Shown one piece after another: positions 31,117-63,994 of a stretch of DNA of 64,000 bases. The DNA is taken from NCBI GenBank assembly GCA_963921275.4, contig OZ001293.3, positions 4,544,001 through 4,608,000 of the forward strand, given 5' to 3'. This stretch comes from an uncultured Hormoscilla sp. Lineage in GTDB: Bacteria > Cyanobacteriota > Cyanobacteriia > Cyanobacteriales > Desertifilaceae. Both the position numbers and the translations under genes were made by a program. The stretch's first letter is position 1; every line of letters starts with the position of its first letter. A model generated the notes under the pieces. The model made no database searches and was not told where the DNA came from. It saw only the letters and a program-made list of their open reading frames with translations.

Positions 31117-31245
31117 ACTACCACTTGTCTGCAATAAAAGATATGATATCCCGTCTAGAGTAATGTTCGTAGTAATGTTCGTAGTAAGCACTAAAGTGCT
31201 TCCCGAGCGCAAGCACTTTAGTGCTTACTACGAACTATCGCCAAC

Positions 31246-49632: not shown

Positions 49633-51642
49633 TTAACCTGGGCAAACACACTCGGCCAGTCTCCCAGTTTTGTTTGACGATCGGGGCCGCATCGTGGGAT
49701 ACCAAGGGCTATCCGATCGATCGAGGAACCAGCGCCAGTCAGGAGAAAAAGGTAACAGCACCCAGACAGGTTTTCCTAAAGCACCTGCTAGATGGGCAAC
49801 TGATGTATCTACAAAAATTACTAAGTCTAATTGTGAGATAACAGCAGCAGAAGAGGCGAAGTCATTCAACAGCTCTCTTAAATCCTGTATAGGTGCCCCA
49901 TCCAGGATATCTGTATGTTCCTTTTGCAAACTATAAAGAAAAATCCCTAATATCTGCGACAGTTCCAGAAACAGGGAAACCGGACAAGACCGCTTGCTAG
50001 CTGTAGGACTTTTAGCATTAACAGCCCACACAATGCCGACTTTTACTTCTCCTTCCGTTCGTAGCAAGCCACTGTACTTGACGGTGTCCTTCTCTTCAGC
50101 GTACAAATAGGGTATTCGAGCCGGAATAGTTTCTATAGTCGTACCCAGGATGCGGGGGAGACTCATCAGGGGGACTTGCACGTCAAATGCTGGTAATGGT
50201 TCGCCCATGACTACCACCTCCTGAACGCCAGAGACCGTAGTAAACAAGCGCCTGAGATCTGGATATGTTTCCACAATTACTTTACCAGCACCCAGCTGGG
50301 TTACTAAGGGCGCGTAACGGATGAATTGGATAGCGTCCCCGTGTCCCTGTTCTGTATGTAAAAGAATAGTTTTTCCTGCCAGTGGCGAACCGTCCCAAAG
50401 AGGTTTTCCCCCATCGCGCAGCGTGGCGCAGCCATAGCGTTGTTCCGGGGTCTGTCCCCGGAACAACCATGATGAATGGCGCCAGCGCCATTCATATTCT
50501 ACAAATCCTTGGCTCAAGTCCTGCAATAATAACAAGCACCTTCCCAGATTTAAGTGAGCCCTTACTGCATCTGGGTTTAAGGCAATAACATGACGGTAAT
50601 AGCCGATCGCCTCTTGTAATTTCAGTTTTTTTCGCAGGGCAAAACCCAGGTTGCTGTAGACTTCGGCAAGGTCTGGTTTCAGGGCGATCGCCTTTTGGTG
50701 GCATGCGATCGCCTCTGCAAACTTACGCTGCTCTTGCCAAGCGGTCCCCATCCTATTGTAAGCTTCTGGATAATCTGGTTTAATTGCCAGAGCCTGACGA
50801 TATTGTCCGATCGCCTCTGCTATTTTACCCTGCTTTTGCAGTATCACCCCCAGGTCGCAATTTGCGTCCAGATAGTTCGGCTTTAAGGCGATCGCCTGTT
50901 CATACTGCCTCGCCGCCTCTGCTAACTTTTCACATCTTTGATAGCATTTCCCCAACTGATTGTAAAATTTCGCTTCTGGTTTAATGGCAATGGCTTTTTC
51001 ATAATAGGCGATAGCCTCTTCTCTGCGGTCCTGCTCTTCCATAATTTTAGCCGCATTATAGTAAGCATCCGCACATTTGGGGTCAATGCCCCGAGCCCCC
51101 TTTTCGTAGCAGGCGATCTCTTGTTGGTAATGAGCGAGCGCCTCTTGATAACGCTTTCCTTGGCGACGCATCGCCGCCAATTTTTCAGGGGTCGCGCCAC
51201 TCGGGATCAGCGATCCCACTTGCTGGTCAGTCTCCTTCGCGTAGCGTGCGCGCAGCTCGATCGCCTCTAATCTTTTTCCCTGTTTTTCCAGGGCCAAAAC
51301 CAGGTTATCATAAGCATTAAGATAATCAGGCTTCACTGCGATCGCCTGTTTGTAGGCAGCGATCGCCTGTTCGATTTTTCCCTGTTCCCAGAAGCAAGCC
51401 CCCAGATTATTATAAGTCTCAGGCCAATCTGGCTTTATAGATATCACCTGTTGAAAATAGCCGATCGCCCGATCGTATTCCCTCGTCTGATAAGCAATAA
51501 TTCCTAGCATCTGCATAGCCTCTACCTTGTGAGGCTGCTGTTCTAGCATCGCCAAATAAACAGCCCTCGCTTCATTCAGACGTCCGGCTTGGTAGTGACT
51601 CAAAGCCTCTCTTAACCAATCGTTCCCTGCTTGCTGTACCAT
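49633..51642 (-). CDS. TPR-repeat glycosyltransferase (GT9-like C-terminus), frameshifted extreme C-terminus
   Basis: Many TPRs; EQGHGDAIQFIRY, DTSVAHLAGALGKP, DWRW...SPWYPTMR. Confidence 0.85.
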   Translation of the reverse strand: MVQQAGNDWLREALSHYQAGRLNEARAVYLAMLEQQPHKVEAMQMLGIIAYQTREYDRAIGYFQQVISIKPDWPETYNNLGACFWEQGKIEQAIAAYKQAIAVKPDYLNAYDNLVLALEKQGKRLEAIELRARYAKETDQQVGSLIPSGATPEKLAAMRRQGKRYQEALAHYQQEIACYEKGARGIDPKCADAYYNAAKIMEEQDRREEAIAYYEKAIAIKPEAKFYNQLGKCYQRCEKLAEAARQYEQAIALKPNYLDANCDLGVILQKQGKIAEAIGQYRQALAIKPDYPEAYNRMGTAWQEQRKFAEAIACHQKAIALKPDLAEVYSNLGFALRKKLKLQEAIGYYRHVIALNPDAVRAHLNLGRCLLLLQDLSQGFVEYEWRWRHSSWLFRGQTPEQRYGCATLRDGGKPLWDGSPLAGKTILLHTEQGHGDAIQFIRYAPLVTQLGAGKVIVETYPDLRRLFTTVSGVQEVVVMGEPLPAFDVQVPLMSLPRILGTTIETIPARIPYLYAEEKDTVKYSGLLRTEGEVKVGIVWAVNAKSPTASKRSCPVSLFLELSQILGIFLYSLQKEHTDILDGAPIQDLRELLNDFASSAAVISQLDLVIFVDTSVAHLAGALGKPVWVLLPFSPDWRWFLDRSDSPWYPTMRPRSSNKTGRLAECVCPG

Positions 51643-51836
51643 TTCACCTCCTAATCATAACAGACAAACCAACGTTAATCATAGCTTCAATTTCCAACTG
51701 TTTAATTTCTGATTCCCGGGATATTTTATTTTAACAGACCCTCCGACGGAAATTACCTGAATTTTTGGTTATTGCTCTCACAACTCACCCACGGAGGCGC
51801 GATCCGGGAGGCGCGCTCTTCGCTGTTAATGCTGCC

Positions 51837-54098
51837 TTAACCTGAGCAAACACACTCGGCCAGTCTCCCAGTTTTGTTTGACGATCGGGGCCGCATCGTG
51901 GGATACCAAGGGCTATCCGATCGATCTAGGAACCAGCGCCAGTTAGGAGAAAAAGGTAACAGCACCCAGACAGGTTTTCCTAAAGCACCTGCTAGATGGG
52001 CAACTGATGTATCTACAGAAATTACTAAGTCTAATTGTGAGATAACAGCAGCCGAAGAGGCGAAGTCATGCAACAGCTCTCTTAAATCTTGTATAGGTGC
52101 CCCATCCAGGATATCTGTATGTTCCTTTTGCAAACTATAAAGAGAAACTCCTGGTATCTGCGACAGTTCCAGAAATAGGGACACTGGACAAGACCGCTTG
52201 CTAGCTGTAAGACTTTTAGCATTAGCAGCCCACACAATGCCGACCTTTACCCTGTATTCGGGATGCGCCGTTCGTAGTACTCCACTGTACTTGACGGCGC
52301 CTTCCGCGTGCTCTTGTCCTTCAGGACAAAGGCCAGCTCCAGGCACCGCAGCTTCCTTCTCTTCAGCGTACAAATAGGGTATTCGAGCCGGAATGGTTTC
52401 TATAGTCGTACCCAGGATGCGGGGGAGACTCATCAGGGAAACTTGCAGGTCAAAGGCTGGTAATGGTTCGCCCTTGACTACCACCTGCTGAAGGCCAGAG
52501 ACCGTAGTAAACAAGCGTCTGAGAGTCGGATAGGTTTCCAGAATCACTTTACCAGCACCCCGCTGGGCTACTAAGGGCGCGTAACGGACGAACTGGATAG
52601 CGTCCCCGTGTCCCTGTTCTGTATGTAGGAAAATAGTTTTTCTTGCCAGTGGCGAACCATCCCAAGGGGGTTTTCCCAAGCGTTCTTCCGGGGTCCGTGC
52701 CCGGAAAAACTCTACTTTTAGGCGCCGGTCCCATTCAATTTATACAAATCCTTGTCGAAAATTCTGCAATAATAATAAGCACATTCCCAGACCCATGTGG
52801 GCCATTGCTGCATCTGGCTTTAAAACAATAGCATGGCGGTAATAGCCGATCGCCTCTTGTAATTTCAGTTGTTCTCGCAGGGCAAAACCCAGGTTGCTGT
52901 AGACTTCGGCAAGGTCTGGTTTCAGGGCGATCGCCTTTTGGTAGCATGCGATCGCCTCTGCTAACTTACCCTGATTTTGCCAAGCGGTCCCCATCCTATT
53001 GTAAGCTTCTGGATAATCTGGTTTAATTGCCAGAGCCTGGCAATATTGTCTGATCGCTTCTGCTATTTTACGCTGCTTTTGCAGTATCACCCCCAGGTTG
53101 CAAATTGCTTCTAGATAGTTCGGCTTTAAGGCGATCGCCCGTTCATACTGTCTCGCCGCCTCTGCTAAGTTCCCACATCTTTGATAGTATGCACCCAACC
53201 TATTGTACAATTTCGCCTCTGGTTTAATGGCAATGGCTTTTTTACAATAGGCGATCGCCTCTTCTCTGCGGTCCTGCTCTTCCATAATTCTGGCCGCCTT
53301 ATAGTAAGCATCCGCATAGTTGGGGTCAATGCTGATAGCCTTTTCGTAGCAGGCGAGCGCTTGTTCCTTATGGCCCAAGGAGTGCAAAACTACGCCCAAA
53401 TTATTGTGCAGGCCCATATCCTGGGGATTGAGAGCGATCGCCTCCCGGTATACCGATACTGCTTCTGCTAGCTTCCCGGTATTTTGGAGACATACCCCCA
53501 ACAAATTCATGGTTTTGCTATTTCCCGGATGGGCCAATAGCGCTTGGCGACAGAGGGCGATCGCCTTGTCTTTTTCTCTCTTTTGATACCAACTCATCGC
53601 CTGTTGGTAATGAGCGCTCGCCTCTTGATAACGCTTTTCCTCCTTCAGCATCGCCGCCGATTTTTCATGGGCCGCTCCACTCCGAATCAGCGGTACCACT
53701 TGCTGGTGCGTCTCGCGCATATCTAATCTTTTTCCCTGTTTTTCCAGGGCCAAAACCAGGTTATCATAAGCATCAAGATAATCAGGATTCACTGCGATCG
53801 CCTGTTTGTAAGCAGCGATCGCCTGTTCGATTTTTCCCTGTTTTCAGAAGCAAGCCCCCAGATTATTATAAGTCTCATGCCAATTTGGCTTTATAGACAT
53901 CACCTGTTGGAAATAGTTGATTGCTCGATCGTATTCCCTCGTCCGATAAGCAATAATTCCCAGCATCTGCATAGCCTCTACCTGGTGAGGCTGCTGTTTG
54001 AGCATCGCCAAATAAACAGCCCTCGCTTCATTCAGACGTCCGGCTTTGTAGTGACCCAAAGCCTTTCTTAACCAATCATTATCCGCTTGCTGTACCAT
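51837..54098 (-). pseudogene. TPR-glycosyltransferase paralog 3, two internal frameshifts
   Basis: ORFs 53844-54098, 52740-53792 and 51837-52679 tile the middle paralog. Confidence 0.9.
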
Positions 54099-54715
54099 TT
54101 CACCTCCTAATCATAACAGACAAACCAACGTTAATCATAGCTTCAATTTCCAACTGTTGAATTTCTGATTCCCGGGATATTTTATTTTAACAGACCCTCC
54201 GACGGAAATTACCTGAGTTTTTGGCGGTTCTCCCGATACCGCAAGTTATTGCTCTCACAACTCACCCAGGACATGCGATCCGGCCGCTCGACAGTGCTCT
54301 CGTCTTGCGGTGAGCGAAGTCAAACCGGCGGTGAGCAAAGTCGAACCGCAAGACGAGAGTCGGGCTAGTATTACACTAGCACATCAAAATCAATTCAGCA
54401 ACTTTAAAGTAAAGCATAATTTCTTTGCCAACACCATGGTAATAGTAGATGAATTACAACAGCACTCCGAGCAGATAATTATGTTAGCATATTAGATGGT
54501 AGTGTGTTGGCTAGCACCGGTAGTCTTAGATATTTACTTTGCCGCTGGGAGCTTGTAGCTTTGGTTCCGAAAAAACCAGTTACACCGGGAGAGTCGCGCG
54601 AAAAGCGCTTGCCGTTGGAAAACACCCCACCGCCCGAACTTTAAAAAACCCGGCTACACCTTTCCTACCCGCCTCCGCAGGCTAATACTCTCGTCACCGA
54701 CAATTTATGAAGTTG

Positions 54716-55035
54716 TTTTAGCCCAAACATGGCCTAGTTTAGCCCAAGCATGGCCCCGGTTAGCTCAGATATGGCTTAGCTTAGCCATCTTTGGACTAGT
54801 TTAGCTCAGACATGGCTTAATTTAGCCCAAAGTTGCCTAAAATAGCCCAAACATGGCCTAAAATAGCCCAAACATGGCCCTCCCATGGCCATTTTTAGCC
54901 CTCCCATGGCCTAGTTTAGCTCAGACATGGCCTAGTTTAGTCCAAAGTGGCCTATTTTAATCCCAAATGGTCTAGGTTAGCCCAAAAATGGCCATGGTTA
55001 ACCCCAAAATGGCCATTTTTAGCCCAAACATGGCC
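54716..55035. repeat. Degenerate ~21-22 bp tandem repeat (TTAGCCCAAACATGGCCTAGT)
   Basis: More than a dozen imperfect units by eye. Confidence 0.85.
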
Positions 55036-55588
55036 AAAAAACAGCGCAGCCTGCTTTAGTCAAAAATGAGCCTAAGCTAGCAAGGTTAAGACAGAACCAG
55101 AGAAAGATATATTACCATGACCGGGTGCTACCTCAGAATACTCCAGCTAACAATTTCAGGAAACGGTAACACTATTAGTAGTAACGACCAACACTGGCTG
55201 TTCTTTGTCAGAAAGCAGTACAAATTTCGATAACCGACCTTTAGCAACGGGGGCCCAGAAAGGCAATAGCGGCGGGGCGGCAGGCATAAGCGGTGCCCTG
55301 TTTGTCTTTAAATGGACGGTCAGAATGACCAACTTTCCGGATAGCATAAAAAAGTAATTTTATGTATCAGAGACGAAAAAACATAAAGATCCGTAAAGTA
55401 TAAGTAGGTAATCCATATTTCTTAAGATTTTTTAAATAGGTCGCAACTTGAGTTATGATAGACCTAGGTGCGACTCGTTCCGGCGTAAGTTAGAAATATG
55501 ACGATAGTCGGGCTAGTATTACACCAGCATTTCTACAGAAAAATACAAGAGAAACCAAAAAATAAAACATAATACCAATGCCAACACC

Positions 55589-58500
55589 ATGGTAGTAGTG
55601 GATGCCTCCCTAGAAAACTACCAGCAGCTTATAGACGGCATCCGGCCTGGGGCCAAATCTTTTTTCTTAGACCTTCGGTCCGATGGCATCGAACAGATCG
55701 GCGAACTTCTCCGACAGCATCAAGAAACAGAGGTTCTGCACCTACTCTCCCATGGCAGCCCTGGCTGTCTGTATCTGGGAAACTCCCAACTGAGTTTAGA
55801 TACTCTAGGAGATTACGCTTCTACCCTGCAGAAGTGGAAAGTAAAACAACTCCTACTCTACGGCTGTAACGTCGCCGCCGGAGATGCAGGAGAGGAGTTG
55901 ATGACTAAGCTACAGGCCCTGACCGGGGCATCCCTCGCCGCCTCTACTACCCGGACAGGGGCAGCAGCCCGGGGCGGAAATTGGAGGTTGGAGTGGCGAA
56001 CTCCGGGGATGAAAACTCCCTTAGCATTGTCCGCAGAAGCTCAGATGGCCTATGGGGGCATATTGATCTCCCAGCAGGAGTATCAGGCCTTAAGGGCTCT
56101 CTATCAAAGCACCAATGGGGCTTCTTGGAGTAACAATACAGGCTGGCAAGACTGGAATTTCAACAGCCCAACTCCCCCCAATGATTCTGTTGTTAATGGT
56201 TGGCATGGAGTGACGGTAGCTAGCTCCCGGGTGATTAACCTCGAGCTGAACTTCAACCAACTGACTGGCAGCATCCCGACGGAGTTAGGGAATCTTTCCA
56301 ATTTGGAGTCTCTCTTGCTGTCCTTCAACCAACTGACTGGCAGCATCCCGACGGAGTTAGGGAATCTTTCCAATTTGCAGTTTCTCCAGCTGTTTTCCAA
56401 CCAACTGACTGGCAGCATCCCGACGGAGTTAGGGAATCTTTCCAATTTGGAGAATCTCCGGCTGTACTCCAACCAACTGACTGGCAGCATCCCGACGGAG
56501 TTAGGGAATCTTTCCAATTTGCAGTTTCTCCAGCTGTTTTCCAACCAACTGACTGGCAGCATCCCGACGGAGTTAGGGAATCTTTCCAATTTGGTATCTC
56601 TCGTGCTGTTCTCCAACCAACTGACTGGCAGCATCCCGACGGAGTTAGGGAATCTTTCCAATTTGGTATCTCTCGTGCTGTTCTCCAACCAACTGACTGG
56701 CAGCATCCCGACGGAGTTAGGGAATCTTTCCAATTTTATTTGGCTCCGGCTGGACTCCAACGAACTGACTGGCAGCATCCCGACGGAGTTAGGGAATCTT
56801 TCCAATTTGCGATCTCTCCAGCTGTTCTTTAACCAACTGACTGGCAGCATTTCCCAAGAGGTTCTAGATTTGAGTGCTGAGAAGCGATTGGAAAACCCCC
56901 CTTATGTTTTAACCGAGATTCCCTACGTCCAACTCTTGCTAGGTAATAACCTCAACATAAACATTAGCGCAGATTTCCGCGACATCAATAACAACATTAG
57001 TAGCTACGGCGCTAATGGTTTGCCAAACGGTTTAACCATTAACTCCACTACTGGGGTGATCAGCGGCACTCCTACTACTGAGGGCAGTTTTACCGTGACG
57101 GTAACAGCAACGGATAGGGCGGGAGGCCGGGGAGAAGATGAATTTAATATTACGGTATCGATTCCTCTCAATGCAAGTGATTACGACGCCCTTCGGGCTC
57201 TCTATAACAGTACTTCTGGGAATAATTGGAGGAAGAGGACAGGCTGGGATGTCAGCAGCCCAACTCCTCCCTCTGCTAGTGTTGTTAATAGCTGGCATGG
57301 GGTGACGGTAGTGGGCGATCGGGTGACGAAACTCTCCCTGTTCAACAACTCCCTGAGCGGTACGCTCCCCTCGGAGTTAGGCTCCCTCAGCAATTTGCAA
57401 GTCCTCTCCCTGAACTTCAGCTCCCTGAGCGGTACGCTCCCCTCGGAGTTAGGCTCCCTCAGCAATTTGCAAGAGCTCTGGCTGGACAGAAACTCCCTGA
57501 GCGGTACGCTCCCCTCTGAGTTAGGCTCCCTCAGCAATTTGCGAAAGCTCTACCTGCACAGAAACTCCCTGAGCGGTACGCTCCCCTCTGAGTTAGGCTC
57601 CCTCAGCAATTTGCAAGAGCTCTCCCTGCACAGAAACTCCCTGAGCGGTACGCTCCCCTCAACCTTAGGCTCCCTCAGCAATTTGCAAGAGCTCTCCCTG
57701 CACAGAAACTCCCTGAGCGGTACGCTCCCCTCAACCTTAGGCTCCCTCAGCAATTTGCAAAACCTCTACCTGGACAGAAACTCCCTGAGCGGTACGCTCC
57801 CCTCTGAGTTAGGCTCCCTCAGCAATTTGCAAGACCTCTACCTGTTCAACAACTCCCTGAGCGGTACGCTCCCCTCGGAGTTAGGCTCTTTCAGCAATTT
57901 GCAAGAGCTCTACCTGAACAACAACGACTTTCGCGGTACGATCCCCGACAGTATCAACGCTTTGTCAGCATCCAAACGATTGGAAAACCCTCCCTATGTG
58001 GAAATTCAAATTCCCGACGTCAATGCCTTAAGTGGTGAGAAATTCAACTTCAAGGTGGGCGGGAACTTCGGCGACCTCAACAACAACATTAGTAGCTACG
58101 GCGCTAATGGTTTGCCAGACGGTTTAACCATTAACTCCACTACTGGGGTGATCAGCGGCATTCCTACTATTCCTACTATTGATGGCAGTTTTACCGTGAC
58201 GGTAACAGCAACGGATGGGGTGGGATACCGGGGAGAGGATGAATTTAATATTACAGTATCGCGTCCCACTAGCTTCAACCTTTCTGATAGTTTCGCTCTC
58301 AATGGCAACTTTACCAATTTGTACATCGGTGACTTTAATGGGGACAATCATGATGATATCCTCCGTCAAGAAAAGGGCAGTTGGTCCAACGAGGATGCCT
58401 ATCGGACTGCTGAAGTCCTCTTATCCCAAGGTAACGGCAACTTTACCCGCACCACCCTTCCTGATAGTAGATCTCTCAATGGCAACTTTATCAATTTGTA

Positions 58501-59707
58501 CATCGGTGACTTTAATGGGGACAATCATGATGATATCCTCCGTCAAGAAAAGGGCAGTTGGTCCAAGGACGATGCCGTAAGGACTGCTGACGTCCTCTTA
58601 TCCCAAGGTAACGGCAACTTTACCCGCACCACCCTTCCTGATAGTTTCGCTCTCAATGGCAACTTTACCAATTTGTATGTCGGTGACTTTAATGGAGACG
58701 AAAAAAGCGATATCCTCCGTCAAGAAAAGGGCAGTTGGTCCAAGGACGATGCCGTAAGGACTGCTGACGTCCTCTTATCCCAAGGTAACGGCAACTTTAC
58801 CCGCACCACCCTTCCTGATAGTTTCGCTCTCAATGGCAACTTTACCAATTTGTATGTCGGTGACTTTAATGGAGACGGGAAAAGCGATATCCTCCGTCAA
58901 GAAAAGGGCGATTGGGATAACGATGCCATTCGGACTGCTGAAGTCCTCTTATCCCAAGGTAACGGCAACTTTACCCGCACCACCCTTCCTGATAGTTTCG
59001 AGCTCAAGGGCGACTTGACCAAGTTGTATATAGAAGATTTGGATGGTGATGACCGAGATGAGATTCTGGTTCAAAAAAAATTGACCCAAGAGGGTCTGTC
59101 CCGCCTCCTGAAGGTATTGTCCTCAAATGATGGGCGCAATTTTACCGAATCTCTGCTCCCTTCTGCGCTTCAGTTTTCCAGTCAAAGCGGGCAACTGTAT
59201 ATTGCCGATTACTCCGGCAGTGGGCAAAACAATGATGTTCTGGTTCAGCGTTCTGGAAATAACCAAGCGCTGCTAGGCAGCATTACCCTGGGGAGCAATG
59301 ACTACCTTCAAGGGGGAACAGGAAACGATTCCCTCAATGGGGGTAACGGAAACGACTGGATTCGCGGATACGGGGGCGACGATACCCTTTTAGGGGGCAG
59401 CGATAACGATACTCTCTATGGCGACGAGGGAGAGGATATTCTCAATGAGGGTAAGGGGCACGACATGCTTTACGGCAATTCCGGTAGTGATACTTTTGTC
59501 TTGGCCCGGGGCATGGGCGGGGATACCATCCAGGACTTTTCAGATGGTACGGACTTTATCCGGTTAGAAGGAGGTTTGAGTTTTGCTGATTTAGGAATTG
59601 ATTCTCAGAACGATTCGACTTCTATTAAGGTCAGTGCTTCTGGGGAACTGTTGGGGATTTTGTCGGGGGTTGATTCTAGTCTTATTGGTGCTTCTGATTT
59701 TGTTTAG
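55589..59707 (+). CDS. Secreted DUF4347 - LRR - Ig (He_PIG-like) - LRR - Ig - FG-GAP/VCBS - RTX protein
   Basis: LHLLSHGSPG/LLLYGCNVA, 24-aa LRRs (NQLTGSIPTELGNLSNL), GLPNGLTINSTTGVISGTPT, GDFNGD repeats, GGxGxD repeats. Confidence 0.93.
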   Translation: MVVVDASLENYQQLIDGIRPGAKSFFLDLRSDGIEQIGELLRQHQETEVLHLLSHGSPGCLYLGNSQLSLDTLGDYASTLQKWKVKQLLLYGCNVAAGDAGEELMTKLQALTGASLAASTTRTGAAARGGNWRLEWRTPGMKTPLALSAEAQMAYGGILISQQEYQALRALYQSTNGASWSNNTGWQDWNFNSPTPPNDSVVNGWHGVTVASSRVINLELNFNQLTGSIPTELGNLSNLESLLLSFNQLTGSIPTELGNLSNLQFLQLFSNQLTGSIPTELGNLSNLENLRLYSNQLTGSIPTELGNLSNLQFLQLFSNQLTGSIPTELGNLSNLVSLVLFSNQLTGSIPTELGNLSNLVSLVLFSNQLTGSIPTELGNLSNFIWLRLDSNELTGSIPTELGNLSNLRSLQLFFNQLTGSISQEVLDLSAEKRLENPPYVLTEIPYVQLLLGNNLNINISADFRDINNNISSYGANGLPNGLTINSTTGVISGTPTTEGSFTVTVTATDRAGGRGEDEFNITVSIPLNASDYDALRALYNSTSGNNWRKRTGWDVSSPTPPSASVVNSWHGVTVVGDRVTKLSLFNNSLSGTLPSELGSLSNLQVLSLNFSSLSGTLPSELGSLSNLQELWLDRNSLSGTLPSELGSLSNLRKLYLHRNSLSGTLPSELGSLSNLQELSLHRNSLSGTLPSTLGSLSNLQELSLHRNSLSGTLPSTLGSLSNLQNLYLDRNSLSGTLPSELGSLSNLQDLYLFNNSLSGTLPSELGSFSNLQELYLNNNDFRGTIPDSINALSASKRLENPPYVEIQIPDVNALSGEKFNFKVGGNFGDLNNNISSYGANGLPDGLTINSTTGVISGIPTIPTIDGSFTVTVTATDGVGYRGEDEFNITVSRPTSFNLSDSFALNGNFTNLYIGDFNGDNHDDILRQEKGSWSNEDAYRTAEVLLSQGNGNFTRTTLPDSRSLNGNFINLYIGDFNGDNHDDILRQEKGSWSKDDAVRTADVLLSQGNGNFTRTTLPDSFALNGNFTNLYVGDFNGDEKSDILRQEKGSWSKDDAVRTADVLLSQGNGNFTRTTLPDSFALNGNFTNLYVGDFNGDGKSDILRQEKGDWDNDAIRTAEVLLSQGNGNFTRTTLPDSFELKGDLTKLYIEDLDGDDRDEILVQKKLTQEGLSRLLKVLSSNDGRNFTESLLPSALQFSSQSGQLYIADYSGSGQNNDVLVQRSGNNQALLGSITLGSNDYLQGGTGNDSLNGGNGNDWIRGYGGDDTLLGGSDNDTLYGDEGEDILNEGKGHDMLYGNSGSDTFVLARGMGGDTIQDFSDGTDFIRLEGGLSFADLGIDSQNDSTSIKVSASGELLGILSGVDSSLIGASDFV

Positions 59708-59977
59708 TTACGGTAAGGCTGTTGTTTTCCCTGGGGGGCCTTTGACTGCTATTGGGGTGTGGTCTTGCGCCCGTTGGTAGGAGACAGTAGCCGGGCCAGT
59801 GAAGGGCCGGGTCTGTCCTATGGTAAAGCAGGAAATGTTACCAATGTCGCCGGTAACCAACACTTGAGTTATAATAAACAAACGTGCCACTCGTTCCGGC
59901 GTAAGTCAGAAATATGACGATAGTCGGGCTAGTATTACACCAGCACCTCTACAGAAAAATACAAGAGAAACCAAAAA

Positions 59978-62900
59978 ATGAAGCATAATACCAATGCCAA
60001 CACCATGGTAGTAGTGGATGCTTCCCTAGAAAACTACCAGCAGCTTATAGACGGCATCCGGCCTGGGGCCAAATCTTTCCTCTTAGACCTTCGGTCCGAT
60101 GGCATCAAACAGATCGGCGAACTTCTCCGACAGCATAAAGAAACAGAGGTTCTGCACCTACTCTCCCATGGCAGCCCTGGCTGTCTGTATCTGGGAAACT
60201 CCCAACTGAGTTTGGATGGGGTCGAGCCGGGAATCGCTTCCCGACCCTCCCTTTCGGAACCGGACTTGCGATTTTCACCGCATCCGGCTACTGGGTACTA
60301 GGCCCTTTTCATAGGTAGACTTAATAGGAATTACTTCCGTTAGCCCTTGCCGCCTGTCTTTTCTTCCCTTTCCTGGTTTAGCGAGTGGTTGTTCTGATAA
60401 CCGTTAGTATCACCATTTTCAAGTCAGTTTTACCAGTTATCCATACCTTATCCTCCACTTGCGTTTCGGATTAGTTCCGTGGCTTTTTAGGATTACTCAT
60501 TCCAGCAGCTTCCTAGTATCACCGACCCACGTCAGCGCTGGCTACCCAGCATCATCTACATTACTGTAGATGTTATCCCAGGAATTACCCCGGGCATTCG
60601 CTTCTTGGGCCATCCCTCCCCCCGTGGCTTGCGCTTAACATCTAACTTGTCCTGATGGACAGCACACGAGAGGTTACTTCGTTCCCTAACAACATTTCGC
60701 GATACCTTTAGGTCCACACTATACCCCGGGAGCTATTTGAGTACTATATTAGCCAGAGTCTAAAACTAATACTAGCTACCATTTCCTTTTTAGGCCAGCG
60801 CATATAGCCTTATTTCGCTGGTTCCTTATAACGAGGCTTGCACATGTTTGCCTGCTCTAACCTTGGATATCTTTCCTAGCGGCGTCACCGGCTTAGGCTG
60901 CCAGTTATCCTACATTTGAGTCCTCGCTTAGCACCACGATGATGTCGCTTCGTAGCACCGAGGACCGGTGTCACCCCCGTACCTGGGGGGAGGGGAATTT
61001 AACCCCCATGCGGTCAGAGTTCCCGGCTAATGAAACCGGGCTAGCGTTCCGTGTTTGACCACGTTAGGCTAGAACGAATCGCACAGATCCTCTAGGAGAT
61101 TACGCCTCTACCCTACAGAAGTGGAAGGTAAAACAACTCCTACTCTACGGCTGTAACGTCGCCGCCGGAGATGCAGGAGAGGAGTTGATGACTAAGCTAC
61201 AGGCCCTAACCGGGGCATCCCTCGCCGCCTCTACTACCCGGACAGGGGCAGCAGCCCGGGGCGGAAATTGGAAGTTGGAGTGGCGAACTCCGGGGATGAA
61301 AACTCCCTTAGCATTGTCCGCAGAAGCTCAGATGGCCTATGGGGGCATATTGATCTCCCAGCAGGAGTATCAGGCCTTAAGGGCTCTATACCAAAGCACC
61401 AATGGGGCTTCTTGGAGTAACAATACAGGCTGGCGAGACTGGAATTTCAACAGCCCAACTCCCCCCAATGATTCTGTTGTTAATGGTTGGTATGGAGTGA
61501 CGGTAGCTAACTCCCAGGTGACTCGCCTCCGGCTGTTCTCCAACCAACTGACTGGCAGCATCCCGACGGAGTTAGGGAATCTTTCCAAATTGGCGGCGCT
61601 CTTGCTGAACTCCAACCAACTGACTGGCAGCATCCCGACGGAGTTAGGGAATCTTTCCAATTTGCAGTTCCTCGAGCTGGACAGAAACCAACTGACTGGC
61701 AGCATCCCGACGGAGTTAGGGAATCTTTCTACTTTGCGACGTCTCTGGCTGGACTCCAACCAACTGACTGGCAGCATCCCGACGGAGTTAGGGAATCTTT
61801 CCAATTTGACAACTCTCCTTCTGAACTCCAACCAACTGACTGGCAGCATCCCGACGGAGTTAGGGAATCTTTCTAAATTGGCGGCGCTCTTGCTGAACTC
61901 CAACCAACTGACTGGCAGCATCCCGACGGAGTTAGGGAATTTTTCCAATTTGCAGTTCCTCGAGCTGGACAGAAACCAACTGACTGGCAGCATCCCGACG
62001 GAGTTAGGGAATCTTTCCAATTTGGTGCAGCTCTTTCTGTACTCCAACCAACTGACTGGCAGCATCCCGACGGAGTTAGGGAATCTTTCCAATTTGGTGC
62101 TGCTCTGGCTGTACTCCAACCAACTGACTGGCAGCATCCCGACGGAGTTAGGGAATCTTTCCAATTTGCAGTTTCTCTACCTGTCCGGCAACCAACTGAC
62201 TGGCAGCATCCCGACTGAATTAGGGAATCTTTCCAATTTGAAGAATCTCCGGCTGGGCTCCAACCAACTGACTGGCAGCATCCCGACGGAGTTAGGGAAT
62301 CTTTCTAATTTGCGACTTCTCTTGCTGTACTCCAACCAACTGACTGGCAGCATCCCGACGGAGTTAGAGAATCTTTCCTATTTGTGGGCGCTCTACCTGA
62401 ACAACAACCTCCTGACTGGCAGCATCCCCCAAGAGGTTCTAGATTTGAGGGGCTTAGTCTTAAAGCGATTGGAAAACCCCCCTTATGTTTTAACCGAGAT
62501 TTCGACGTCCAACTCTTGCTAGGTAATAATCTCAACATAGACATTAGCGCAAATTTCGGCGACATCAATAACAACATCAACAACTACACAGCTACCGGTT
62601 TACCAGGGGGCGTAACCATCAACAGTCGGGGAGTTATCAGCGGTACTCCTACTACCGCAGACACCTTTACCGTGACGGTAACAGCAACGGATAGGGCGGG
62701 ATACCGGGGAGAGGATGAATTTAATATTACGGTATTGACTCGTAATCCTCTCAATGCTAATGATTATGCAGCCCTTCTGACTCTCTATAACAGTACTTCT
62801 GGGGAGAATTGGGCGAACAGGACAGGCTGGGATGTCAGCAGCCGGACTCCCCTCTCTGCCGATGTTGTTAATGGCTGGCATGGGGTGACGGTAGTGGGAA

Positions 62901-63994
62901 ATCGGGTGACAGGACTCAACCTGGACAGAAACTCCCTGAGCGGTACGATCCCGTTCGAGTTAGGTTCCCTCAGCAATTTGCGATACCTCTGGCTGGGCTC
63001 CAACTCCCTGAGCGGTACGATCCCCTCTGAGTTAGGCTCCCTCAGCAATTTGCAACGTCTCTCCCTGCACCACAACAACTCCCTGAGCGGTACGATCCCC
63101 TCGGAGTTAGGCTCCCTCAGCAATTTGCAAGAACTCTCCGTGAACAACAACCGACTGAGCGGTACGCTCCCTTCAGGGTTAGGCTCCCTCAGCAATTTGC
63201 AAAGCCTTATTCTGTCCTCCAACAACCTGAGCGGTACGATCCCCTCGGAGTTAGGCTCCCTCAGCAATTTGTCAGGCCTCTTCCTGCACAACAACTCCCT
63301 GATCGGTACGATCCCCTCGGAGTTAGGCTCCCTCAGCAATTTGCAACACCTCTACCTGTACAACAACGACTTTCGCGGTACGATCCCCGACAGTATCAAC
63401 GCTTTGTCAGCAGACAAACAATTGGAAAACCCTCCCTATGTGGAAACTCAAATTCCCGACGTCAATGCCTTCAGGAGTGAGAACTTCAACTTCAATGTCA
63501 GCCGGAACTTCGGCGACCTCAACAACAACATTAATAGCTACGGCGCTAATGGTTTGCCAAACGGTTTAACCATTAACTCCACTACTGGGGTGATCAGCGG
63601 CACTCCTACTACTGATGGCAGTTTTACCGTGACGGTAACAGCAACGGATAGGGCGGGAGGCCGGGGAGAGGATGAATTTAATATTACAGTATCGCGTCCC
63701 ACTAGCTTCACCCTTTCTGATAGTTTCGCTCTCAATGGCAACTTTACCAATTTGTACATCGGTGACTTTAATGGGGACAATTATGATGATATCCTCCGTC
63801 AAGAAAAGGGCAGTTGGTCCAACGACGATGCCTATCGGACTGCTGAAGTCCTCTTATCCCAAGGTAACGGCAACTTTACCCGCACCACCCTTCCTGATAG
63901 TTTCGCTCTCAATGGCAACTTTACCAATTTGTATGTCGGTGACTTTAATGGGGACAATCATGAATTATTTCACCCCAGTCTGAACCCACCATGA
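59978..63994 (+). pseudogene. Tandem paralog of the DUF4347-LRR gene, interrupted by an antisense intron, a frameshift near 62502 and truncation near 63962
   Basis: ORFs 59978, 61185 and 62384 tile paralog 1. Confidence 0.9.
60214..61084 (-). ncRNA. ORF-less group II intron D, antisense within the DUF4347 domain
   Basis: 5' GTGCGATTCGTT at 61084; DV (rc) AGCCGGATGCGGTGAAAATCGCAAGTCCGGTTC; flanks GAGTTT|AGAT match uninterrupted paralog 1. Confidence 0.92.

Follow-up and report, generated by a model that had tools for sequence, protein, structure and literature searches.

The variable lymphocyte receptors (VLRs) of lamprey and hagfish are assembled somatically, deaminases assisting the transfer of flanking cassettes to a gene that is incomplete, and the repeats of Xanthomonas transcription activator-like (TAL) effectors are near-identical in DNA apart from two specificity codons and evolve by repeat recombination. 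Leucine-rich repeats (LRRs) of the plant-specific (PS) class follow a 24-residue consensus, LxxLxLxxNxL(S/T)GxIPxxLGxLxx. In solved LRR structures the xxLxLxx strand lines the concave face, and the LRR ectodomains of plant peptide receptors bind their ligands on this face. In fungal NOD-like receptors (NLRs), WD, ankyrin (ANK) and tetratricopeptide (TPR) repeats of high internal conservation (HIC) are near-identical, vary in number and are exchanged within and between members of a family, with a few surface positions under positive diversifying selection (PMC1805685, PMC4986451). The HIC criterion is an identity between repeats of at least about 85% over at least 100 residues, and the same study reports no LRR motifs in these proteins (Dyrka et al. 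2014, PMC4986451). Cyanobacterial and actinobacterial NLR-like proteins carry HIC WD and TPR repeats, prokaryotic NLRs being without LRRs according to that study (10.1101/2020.01.06.895854). A 2026 survey counts HIC proteins in bulk by repeat type (ANK, TPR, WD40 and LRR of SMART), and its section 12 describes neither a secreted LRR family nor a per-codon pattern (PMC13449251). In the present work we analyzed a stretch of 64,000 nucleotides, hereafter the window (C1:4544001-4608000), from the 7.03-Mb genome of an uncultured cyanobacterium of the genus Hormoscilla, in which genes of the photosystem II reaction centre are present. It contains four arrays of 72-bp LRR units, which belong to two tandem paralogues, the intact gene 1 and the broken gene 2. 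A literature search that left subscription journals outside its scope found no description of near-identical LRR units with hypervariable codons in secreted bacterial proteins.

An initial annotation of the window had described these arrays as a nearly invariant DNA scaffold with hypervariable codons on the binding face, and had read them as a recombination-driven repertoire of secreted binders analogous to VLRs. Each gene holds a type-A and a type-B array, with the 51-base scaffold NQLTGSIPTELGNLSNL in the type-A array of gene 1 and the scaffold NSLSGTLPSELGSLSNL in its type-B array. Tandem Repeats Finder (TRF) placed the arrays at 56240-56850 (8.5 copies, 90% matches), 57347-57920 (8.0 copies, 91%), 61538-62428 (12.4 copies, 84%) and 62930-63388 (6.3 copies, 80%), in agreement with the limits given earlier to about 20 bases. 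All six heptads that had been quoted as examples (ESLLLSF, QFLQLFS, ENLRLYS, RRLWLDS, AALLLNS and QFLELDR) were found, and the quoted 51-base scaffold is exact in six of the eight type-A units of gene 1. In the 20 type-A units of the window, 72 of 100 variable codons deviate from the window consensus, compared to 13 of 380 in the scaffold, of which 5 are synonymous and 8 non-synonymous changes; for the 14 type-B units the corresponding values are 51 of 70 and 29 of 266. Heptads recur at non-adjacent places, QFLQLFS in units 3 and 5 of gene 1 and the pair AALLLNS-QFLELDR in units 2-3 and 6-7 of gene 2. Repeat number also differs between gene 1 and gene 2, with 8 versus 12 units of type A and 8 versus 6 of type B when the cap unit is not counted.

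A search of the genome allowing up to 12 substitutions to either 51-base scaffold revealed 277 units of 72 bp in 41 arrays of 1 to 18 units each, 221 of them type A and 56 type B. The type-A 51-mer is exact in 95 of the 221 units and carries one change in 48 more; at up to three mismatches it had 171 matches in the genome and none with the reversed control, which places the pattern well outside chance. The arrays sit in 34 stop-to-stop frames at about 30 loci. A Pfam scan of 33 frames identified DUF4347 in 14, He_PIG in 24, cadherin in 11, FG-GAP_3 in three and repeats-in-toxin (RTX) motifs in seven, with no match in two, and the architecture of the paralogues is DUF4347-LRR-He_PIG-cadherin or FG-GAP-RTX. 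Judged by these domains, the approximately 30 genes are one family of predicted large multidomain adhesin-like proteins. No ATPase family, such as the NACHT or NB-ARC of NLRs, was detected by Pfam in gene 1, in the gene 2 pieces or in 33 other frames. In gene 1 the order of the domains is DUF4347 (7.3e-51), the type-A LRR array, an Ig-like He_PIG stretch, the type-B LRR array, a second He_PIG stretch (3.4e-31 for the two), FG-GAP (FG-GAP_3, 1.3e-18) and RTX, the latter represented by the C-terminal calcium-binding nonapeptide repeats of HemolysinCabind at residues 1235-1267 (1.9e-13). The N-terminus of gene 1 showed no signal-peptide-like start. In combination with RTX repeats at the C-terminus, this is suggestive of a gene 1 product exported by type 1 secretion, and the proteins look secreted, as had been assumed in the initial annotation.

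The site profile of type A was established from the 179 of 221 units with at most four scaffold mismatches. The per-base entropy of most scaffold codons was about 0 to 0.3 bit, codons 9 and 16 being looser with values up to 0.6-0.7 bit. Synonymous sites were uniform too, with TTA at L18 in 177, GGC at G12 in 178 and AAT at N20 in 177 of the 179 units, and the Leu codons that are interleaved with the variable ones were near-invariant (CTC at L3 in 173, CTG at L5 in 169). Codons 1, 2, 4, 6 and 7, on the other hand, reached 1.3-1.95 bits at their first and second bases and encode 13-17 residue types per position. These are the five x codons of xxLxLxx, which differ by about 52% in DNA, compared to 2.8% for the scaffold codons. 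Type B gave the same site pattern in those units, 53 of 56, that have no more than four mismatches. Per-site entropy and the quotient of non-synonymous and synonymous distances (dN/dS) across all genomic units had been named beforehand as a check on an even spread of variation; the variation was concentrated in the five codons.

Distances according to Nei and Gojobori, a counting method, gave for type A a scaffold dS of 0.054, a scaffold dN of 0.031 and a variable-codon dN of 1.18, and for type B values of 0.066, 0.040 and 1.08, respectively. Within the variable codons, multiple hits make the synonymous distance (0.54) untrustworthy; scaffold dS was therefore taken as the yardstick, and the ratio of variable-codon dN to scaffold dS is then about 22 for type A and about 16 for type B. 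Codon bias does not explain the uniformity of the scaffold, as several of its codons are seldom used by this organism (CTT 0.06, CTC 0.12 and TTA 0.17 of the usage of their amino acid). The third bases of the variable codons were retained well beyond the expectation from codon usage: among the 179 units, C was found at codon 6 in 163 (67.5 expected) and at codon 7 in 156 (63 expected), and T at codon 2 in 121 (65.5 expected). The variants therefore arose in place from shared ancestral codons and do not represent old lineages. The residues used are biased towards those typical of binding, with Trp at position 4 in 44 of 179 units and S, D, E, R, N, F, Y and W dominating overall.

The units fit the PS-class consensus as xxLxLxxNQLTGSIPTELGNLSNL and xxLxLxxNSLSGTLPSELGSLSNL and are matched by the Pfam families LRR_1, LRR_8, LRR_4 and LRR_14. 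An AlphaFold2 model of the first LRR domain from a single sequence is a regular solenoid (pLDDT 83.7, pTM 0.85), and a strand runs through heptad residues 2-6 in every unit. Structure prediction, also proposed earlier as a check, is thus in line with the assignment of the variable residues, the x of xxLxLxx, to the strand of an LRR solenoid. The best matches among solved structures were FLS2 (E 6.4e-15, TMq 0.77), followed by the ectodomains of MIK2, RGFR1 and BRI1.

Divergence was measured for type A on 21 core arrays with 162 units. The scaffold differs by 0.028 between arrays and by 0.027 within arrays, and the flanks of the same genes differ four to five times more (N-cap 0.14, He_PIG 0.12). 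Synonymous differences per identical codon amount to 0.07-0.08 in the flanks versus 0.027 in the scaffold. Over all aligned pairs of paralogues the mismatch is 4.4% in non-LRR sequence, 2.5% in the scaffold, 23% at the third base of variable codons and 48% at their first and second bases. The pair F33 and F6 differs at 3 of 1674 bases outside the LRRs and at 4 of 283 in the scaffold, compared to 24 of 43 first and second bases of variable codons. Divergence between these two is uneven from one segment to another, which indicates exchange after duplication; the paralogues are mosaics.

The repertoire proposed in the initial annotation is a large one across the genome, the 277 units of the roughly 30 genes containing 224 distinct heptad 21-mers. 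Of these, 182 occur once and 42 recur, 25 within a single array, in blocks of one to three units, and 17 in two or more arrays. Runs of at least two units common to different loci number only four; the type-B array of gene 1 and the array at C1:4935642 have two 4-unit runs in common, between which the latter carries three extra units. Unit duplication, deletion and crossing-over inside arrays are hence real processes, and to this extent the proposal of a recombination-driven repertoire holds: block duplications, an indel and mosaic paralogues are visible. Recombination of cassettes nevertheless leaves the diversity itself unexplained. As most 21-mers are unique and few runs are shared, the variety comes mostly from base changes at the five codons, not from cassette shuffling, and the search for cassettes shared with other loci returned the 17 21-mers present in more than one array and few multi-unit runs. 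Mutual information between variable codons was high for the neighbouring codons 1-2 (z 9.7) and 6-7 (z 6.7) and at shuffle level (z below 2) for codons 12-18 bases apart.

The array DNA was compared with 40 related genomes, and only three of them, all of the same genus, matched, at no more than 72-75% identity. At the secDF and pdhB genes, DNA identity to four congeners is 97-98% (G002-G004) and 94-95% (G001). The 51-mer, at up to three mismatches, was absent from G001-G003 and present once, with three mismatches, in G004; G002 is an assembly of six contigs, and the other congener assemblies are fragmented, so that repeats may be missing from them. The arrays of the congeners have the same codon skeleton, more positions of which differ, and their within-array scaffold divergence is 0.13-0.25 (six arrays). 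A class-wide search gave 30 loci, one of them that of the window itself; LRR arrays occur in three of the 29 others and are all diverged. These DUF4347-LRR arrays of three more distant cyanobacteria are ordinary, with a scaffold divergence of 0.34-0.48 and a ratio of variable to scaffold divergence of about 2. DUF4347 as such was matched in 176 of 301 genomes of the class. The nearest named protein relatives are from Okeania and Leptolyngbya. The Okeania protein P0070 is 60% identical over 99% of the query and repeats a scaffold of its own about 27 times with the same protein-level pattern, indicating that at least one other lineage came to have near-uniform scaffolds as well, the sequence being particular to each. 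A related-locus search of genome contigs returned only three partial loci, of one Hormoscilla metagenome-assembled genome, none with arrays. A one-to-one orthologue of gene 1 could not be named by synteny, the flanking TPR genes and the upstream region being multi-copy both here and in the congeners.

We consider it likely that the arrays are the product of concerted evolution, by unequal crossing-over and ectopic conversion, combined with selection for diversity on the concave face. What the analysis shows is the pattern in the sequence and how far it reaches over the genome, its scarcity in those congeners that were searched, the mosaic nature of the paralogues, and the fold. In the proposed mechanism, the identical 51-base scaffold would supply long perfect homology and thereby allow ongoing crossing-over and conversion within and between loci. 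Units would be duplicated, deleted and homogenized, by unequal crossing-over inside the arrays and by ectopic gene conversion from one paralogue to another. Selection for new binding surfaces would retain amino-acid changes at five strand positions, which are putatively solvent-exposed, so that those codons would differ while the surrounding neutral sites stay uniform. The outcome would be a germline repertoire of LRR binders differing in specificity and length. The arrays are probably the ligand-binding modules of a secreted or surface-held family of about 30 genes whose products would be type 1 secretion substrates. We infer this route of secretion, the mechanism of recombination and the selective agent, be it recognition of kin, partners, grazers or phages, from the features described above.

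Several observations weigh against this explanation. The divergence of the type-B scaffold (0.047) is close to that of its flanks (0.06), so that for type B a young family is as good an explanation as conversion. The first 512 bases, encoding DUF4347, are 96-98% identical among about ten paralogues, and part of the scaffold identity may reflect recent gene duplication. Among 67 pairs of type-A units that differ in a single variable codon, 35 have two or three bases changed in it, which is not expected from plain stepwise mutation and requires very short conversion tracts or a codon-level process. Reassortment of a limited set of codon alleles by such tracts would explain both these differences and the linkage restricted to neighbouring codons; selection that repeatedly favoured the same residues would do so too. 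With the interleaved Leu codons left unchanged, a ratio of about 20 is extreme if ordinary point mutations were what selection acted on, and as gene conversion lowers scaffold dS, the dN/dS ratio overstates selection. Finally, the contigs of public runs (four of 17 runs, same organism) are short, mostly 100-800 bases, fit several paralogues and collapse them; none spans an array, in which change by recombination would show.

The most probable alternative is a single recent burst, in which one unit and one gene were amplified and point mutations at the five codons were then positively selected, without continuing conversion. The near-absence of the scaffold from the four congeners, the similarity of the DUF4347 domains and the equal divergence of type-B scaffold and flanks all agree with it, and so does the finding that, at each variable codon, the alleles are linked in networks of single steps in which the third base is retained. 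It does not account for the type-A flanks, more diverged than the scaffold of the same genes, or for the agreement of scaffold divergence within and between arrays. F33 and F6, which differ by 0.18% over the 1674 non-LRR bases, are only 93-98% identical elsewhere, and we regard a burst without subsequent exchange as unlikely. Absence of any selection for diversity, the five positions being unconstrained and the remainder under strong purifying selection, would be in keeping with the established tolerance of solvent-exposed LRR strand residues for most substitutions. Neutral sites, however, cannot exceed synonymous ones about 20-fold, and homogenization would erase neutral variation as it did at the interleaved Leu codons and the third bases. 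The skewed residue usage and the low ratio of about 2 in ordinary arrays of the same family speak against it as well, and this reading is hardly tenable. Still less probable is an artefact of assembly or polishing that copied a consensus over the repeats. Such repeats are hard to assemble, and some arrays show single-base frame changes that are possible errors; yet the contigs of the four public runs, which are possibly the assembly's own data, hold 56-59% of the sampled words, the arrays keep their frame and distinct heptads, and the Okeania protein with the same pattern at the protein level comes from another project.

A classical diversity-generating retroelement (DGR) was rejected as a candidate. 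It would randomize every template adenine, and about 14 scaffold adenines are invariant here (entropy of at most about 0.2 bit); reverse transcriptase (RT) genes are absent from the window, none of the 93 genomic RVT_1 matches falling inside it, in accordance with the earlier statement that no diversifying enzyme is visible there. This leaves a programmed, site-directed mutagenic or templated process of another kind that rewrites the five codons. The restriction of variation to first and second bases in five codons whose neighbours are untouched, the many single-codon differences of two or three bases and the 93 RT matches elsewhere in the genome are compatible with such a process. Most of the open reading frames (ORFs) around these matches measure 400-610 aa, however, a length we take to be typical of group II intron RTs, and a comparison by eye of RT genes near LRR arrays gave no clear excess over a rough chance estimate of about 9. 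Residue usage is strongly non-random (Trp 25% at position 4), recent paralogues share 4-unit runs with unchanged variable codons and so give no sign of continuing hypermutation, and no template-like copy was found, template repeats beyond the locus not having been searched for. We therefore judge a programmed process very unlikely. The same low probability applies to rewriting of the five codons at codon resolution, whether by very short templated conversion among the approximately 277 units or by a non-DGR mutator; if true, a single population would carry a changing, antibody-like surface LRR repertoire, a bacterial counterpart of the VLRs. Chances are slimmer again for cassette switching of the VLR or antigenic-variation type, with broken or silent paralogues donating to a few expressed genes and variation within the population. 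Many paralogues do look broken, six by the same intron and several by frame change or truncation, the perfect 51-base homology blocks would permit copying, and some units and runs of two to four units are common to loci. On the other side, 182 of 224 21-mers are unique, only four multi-unit runs are shared between loci, and the copies are dispersed genes of full architecture instead of cassette banks adjoining a site of expression. Our preferred reading remains concerted evolution together with diversifying selection.

The features of the locus are collected in Table 1. In gene 2, the equivalent of nucleotides 1-213 of gene 1 aligns at C1:4604005-4604217, where Pfam finds DUF4347 profile positions 1-73, and the DUF4347 coding sequence is split after nucleotide 213 by a group II intron. 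Its domain V/VI matched RF00029 on the minus strand (60216-60292, E 1.6e-07) with 46.4 bits, the gathering score being 40. Being antisense to gene 2, the intron cannot be spliced from the gene 2 mRNA. The type-A array of gene 2 comprises 12 units at 61521-62384 and a cap-like unit. Near 62495 the reading frame is lost, and the type-B array has six units at 62909-63343, one of which is 25 residues long.

Table 1. Coordinates of the LRR genes and associated features (positions in the window)
Feature	Position	Strand	Basis or detail
Region upstream of gene 1, with 20-21-bp tandem repeats at 54307-55036	54099..55588	+	TRF, blastn
Gene 1, intact, 1372 aa	55589..59707	+	ORF, Pfam
Type-A LRR array of gene 1	56234..56881	+	8 units of 72 bp (56234-56809) and a C-terminal cap-like unit
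Type-B LRR array of gene 1	57326..57973	+	8 units (57326-57901) and a cap-like unit
FG-GAP-like repeats of gene 1, 177-bp tandem array	58279..59028	+	4.3 copies, 91% matches
Gene 2, 5' piece, DUF4347 to nucleotide 213 of the domain coding sequence	60005..60217	+	alignment, Pfam
ORF-less group II intron, about 870 bp, antisense to gene 2	60218..61087	-	Rfam RF00029
Gene 2, middle piece: remaining DUF4347, N-cap, type-A array	61085..62522	+	ORF, Pfam, alignment
Gene 2, 3' piece, other frame: He_PIG, type-B array, He_PIG, FG-GAP	62384..63994	+	reaches window end

Several members of the family look broken, six of them by an antisense copy of the intron at one identical DUF4347 site, and some frames are short fragments. 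Frame changes in or adjoining the array were seen at four loci (L004, L011, L022 and L029); single-base frame changes could be assembly errors. In hand sums, scaffold mismatches per unit are about 1.0 in the six intron-disrupted paralogues and about 0.5 in the other core type-A arrays, which would fit relaxed constraint after inactivation. The intron itself has 140 chromosomal copies (at least 850 nt and 98% identity; median 99.65%) and makes up about 2% of the chromosome. Isolated single units lie at 104397, 2454147 and 3981140, the last two upstream of LRR genes; these two (C1:2454147-2454218 and C1:3981140-3981211) have the heptad ESLRLDG, 10 scaffold mismatches and 172-codon frames without a Pfam match. 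The FG-GAP-like array of gene 1 is a second repeat type in the same gene that is also kept similar.

The tandem repeats upstream of gene 1 extend over about 700 bp, 550-1280 bp before the gene. By blastn, the whole upstream region recurs with 89-98% identity before four LRR genes (C1:4786468, 5323221, 4388585 and 2173954) and may be a shared regulatory region. Gene 1 adjoins multi-copy TPR-repeat genes on the minus strand (window positions 49633-54098). As TPR genes stand beside LRR genes at several loci of this genome and also in the congeners G002 and G004, the two appear to travel as a duplicated module. Farther away, at 31150-31240 of the window, an element of about 50-80 bases lies between secD and pdhB; it has hundreds of matches, on either strand, in each of the four congeners and resembles a small palindromic repeat of dispersed type. 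Contig C3 of the assembly (31,420 bases) has a G+C content of 17.6%, compared to 47% for the chromosome, and may be a foreign replicon or contamination.

Among known systems, plant PS-class LRRs (FLS2, MIK2, RGFR1, BRI1 and PGIP) have the same 24-residue unit and consensus, with hypervariable xxLxLxx positions in resistance proteins; their units are, however, diverged in DNA, and the proteins described here are without a kinase or transmembrane part. With the VLRs the arrays have in common the LRR scaffold, the diversity on the concave strand and the binder repertoire. The analogy drawn in the initial annotation thus applies to the outcome, in which the LRR scaffold is fixed and the concave face varies, but not to the mechanism: the genes here are complete in the germline, few units are common to loci, and there is neither an incomplete acceptor gene nor a cassette bank. 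TAL effectors are likewise bacterial secreted proteins built of near-identical repeats with variable specificity codons, but they differ in fold, bind DNA and vary at two residues with few alleles, compared to five positions here with the range of residue types given above. DGRs, too, concentrate diversity in the first two bases of chosen binding-surface codons; in contrast to them, the locus has no RT or template, its scaffold adenines are constant, and the target is neither a C-type lectin nor an Ig fold.

The HIC repeats of the fungal NLRs of Podospora (het-d, het-e and NWD) resemble the arrays in their near-identical repeats, hypervariable surface positions, exchange among several genes and occasional pseudogenes. 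Differences lie in the repeat type, here LRR, in the extracellular, RTX-type multidomain proteins of a bacterium, in the absence of a NOD ATPase and of repeat-induced point mutation (RIP), and in scale, 277 units in about 30 genes versus 10 genes. Set beside the HIC threshold, the window arrays show TRF DNA matches of 90, 91, 84 and 80%; at the protein level 19 of 24 positions are near-fixed and five differ by about 80%, which by arithmetic gives about 80-85% identity, at the threshold. The bacterial NLR-like HIC proteins belong to the same phylum and show the same internal conservation, but are cytoplasmic, ATPase-linked sensors. P0070 suggests at least one further secreted HIC-LRR family. 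The contrast with the four close congeners makes the genus a tractable system for the origin and turnover rate of a repertoire, and the pattern points to strong pressure for recognition diversity at the cyanobacterial surface, with kin or partner recognition, grazers and phages as candidates. With a fixed scaffold and five randomized surface positions per repeat in about 40 arrays, the family resembles an engineered repeat-protein library, and its units could be a starting point for the design of LRR binders. In summary, the HIC regime itself is known; the novelty lies in the type of repeat, in the extracellular setting and in the multi-locus extent, by which the regime is extended from cytoplasmic WD, ANK and TPR sensors of the NLR type to LRRs, to secreted proteins and to a genome-wide scale in a bacterium.

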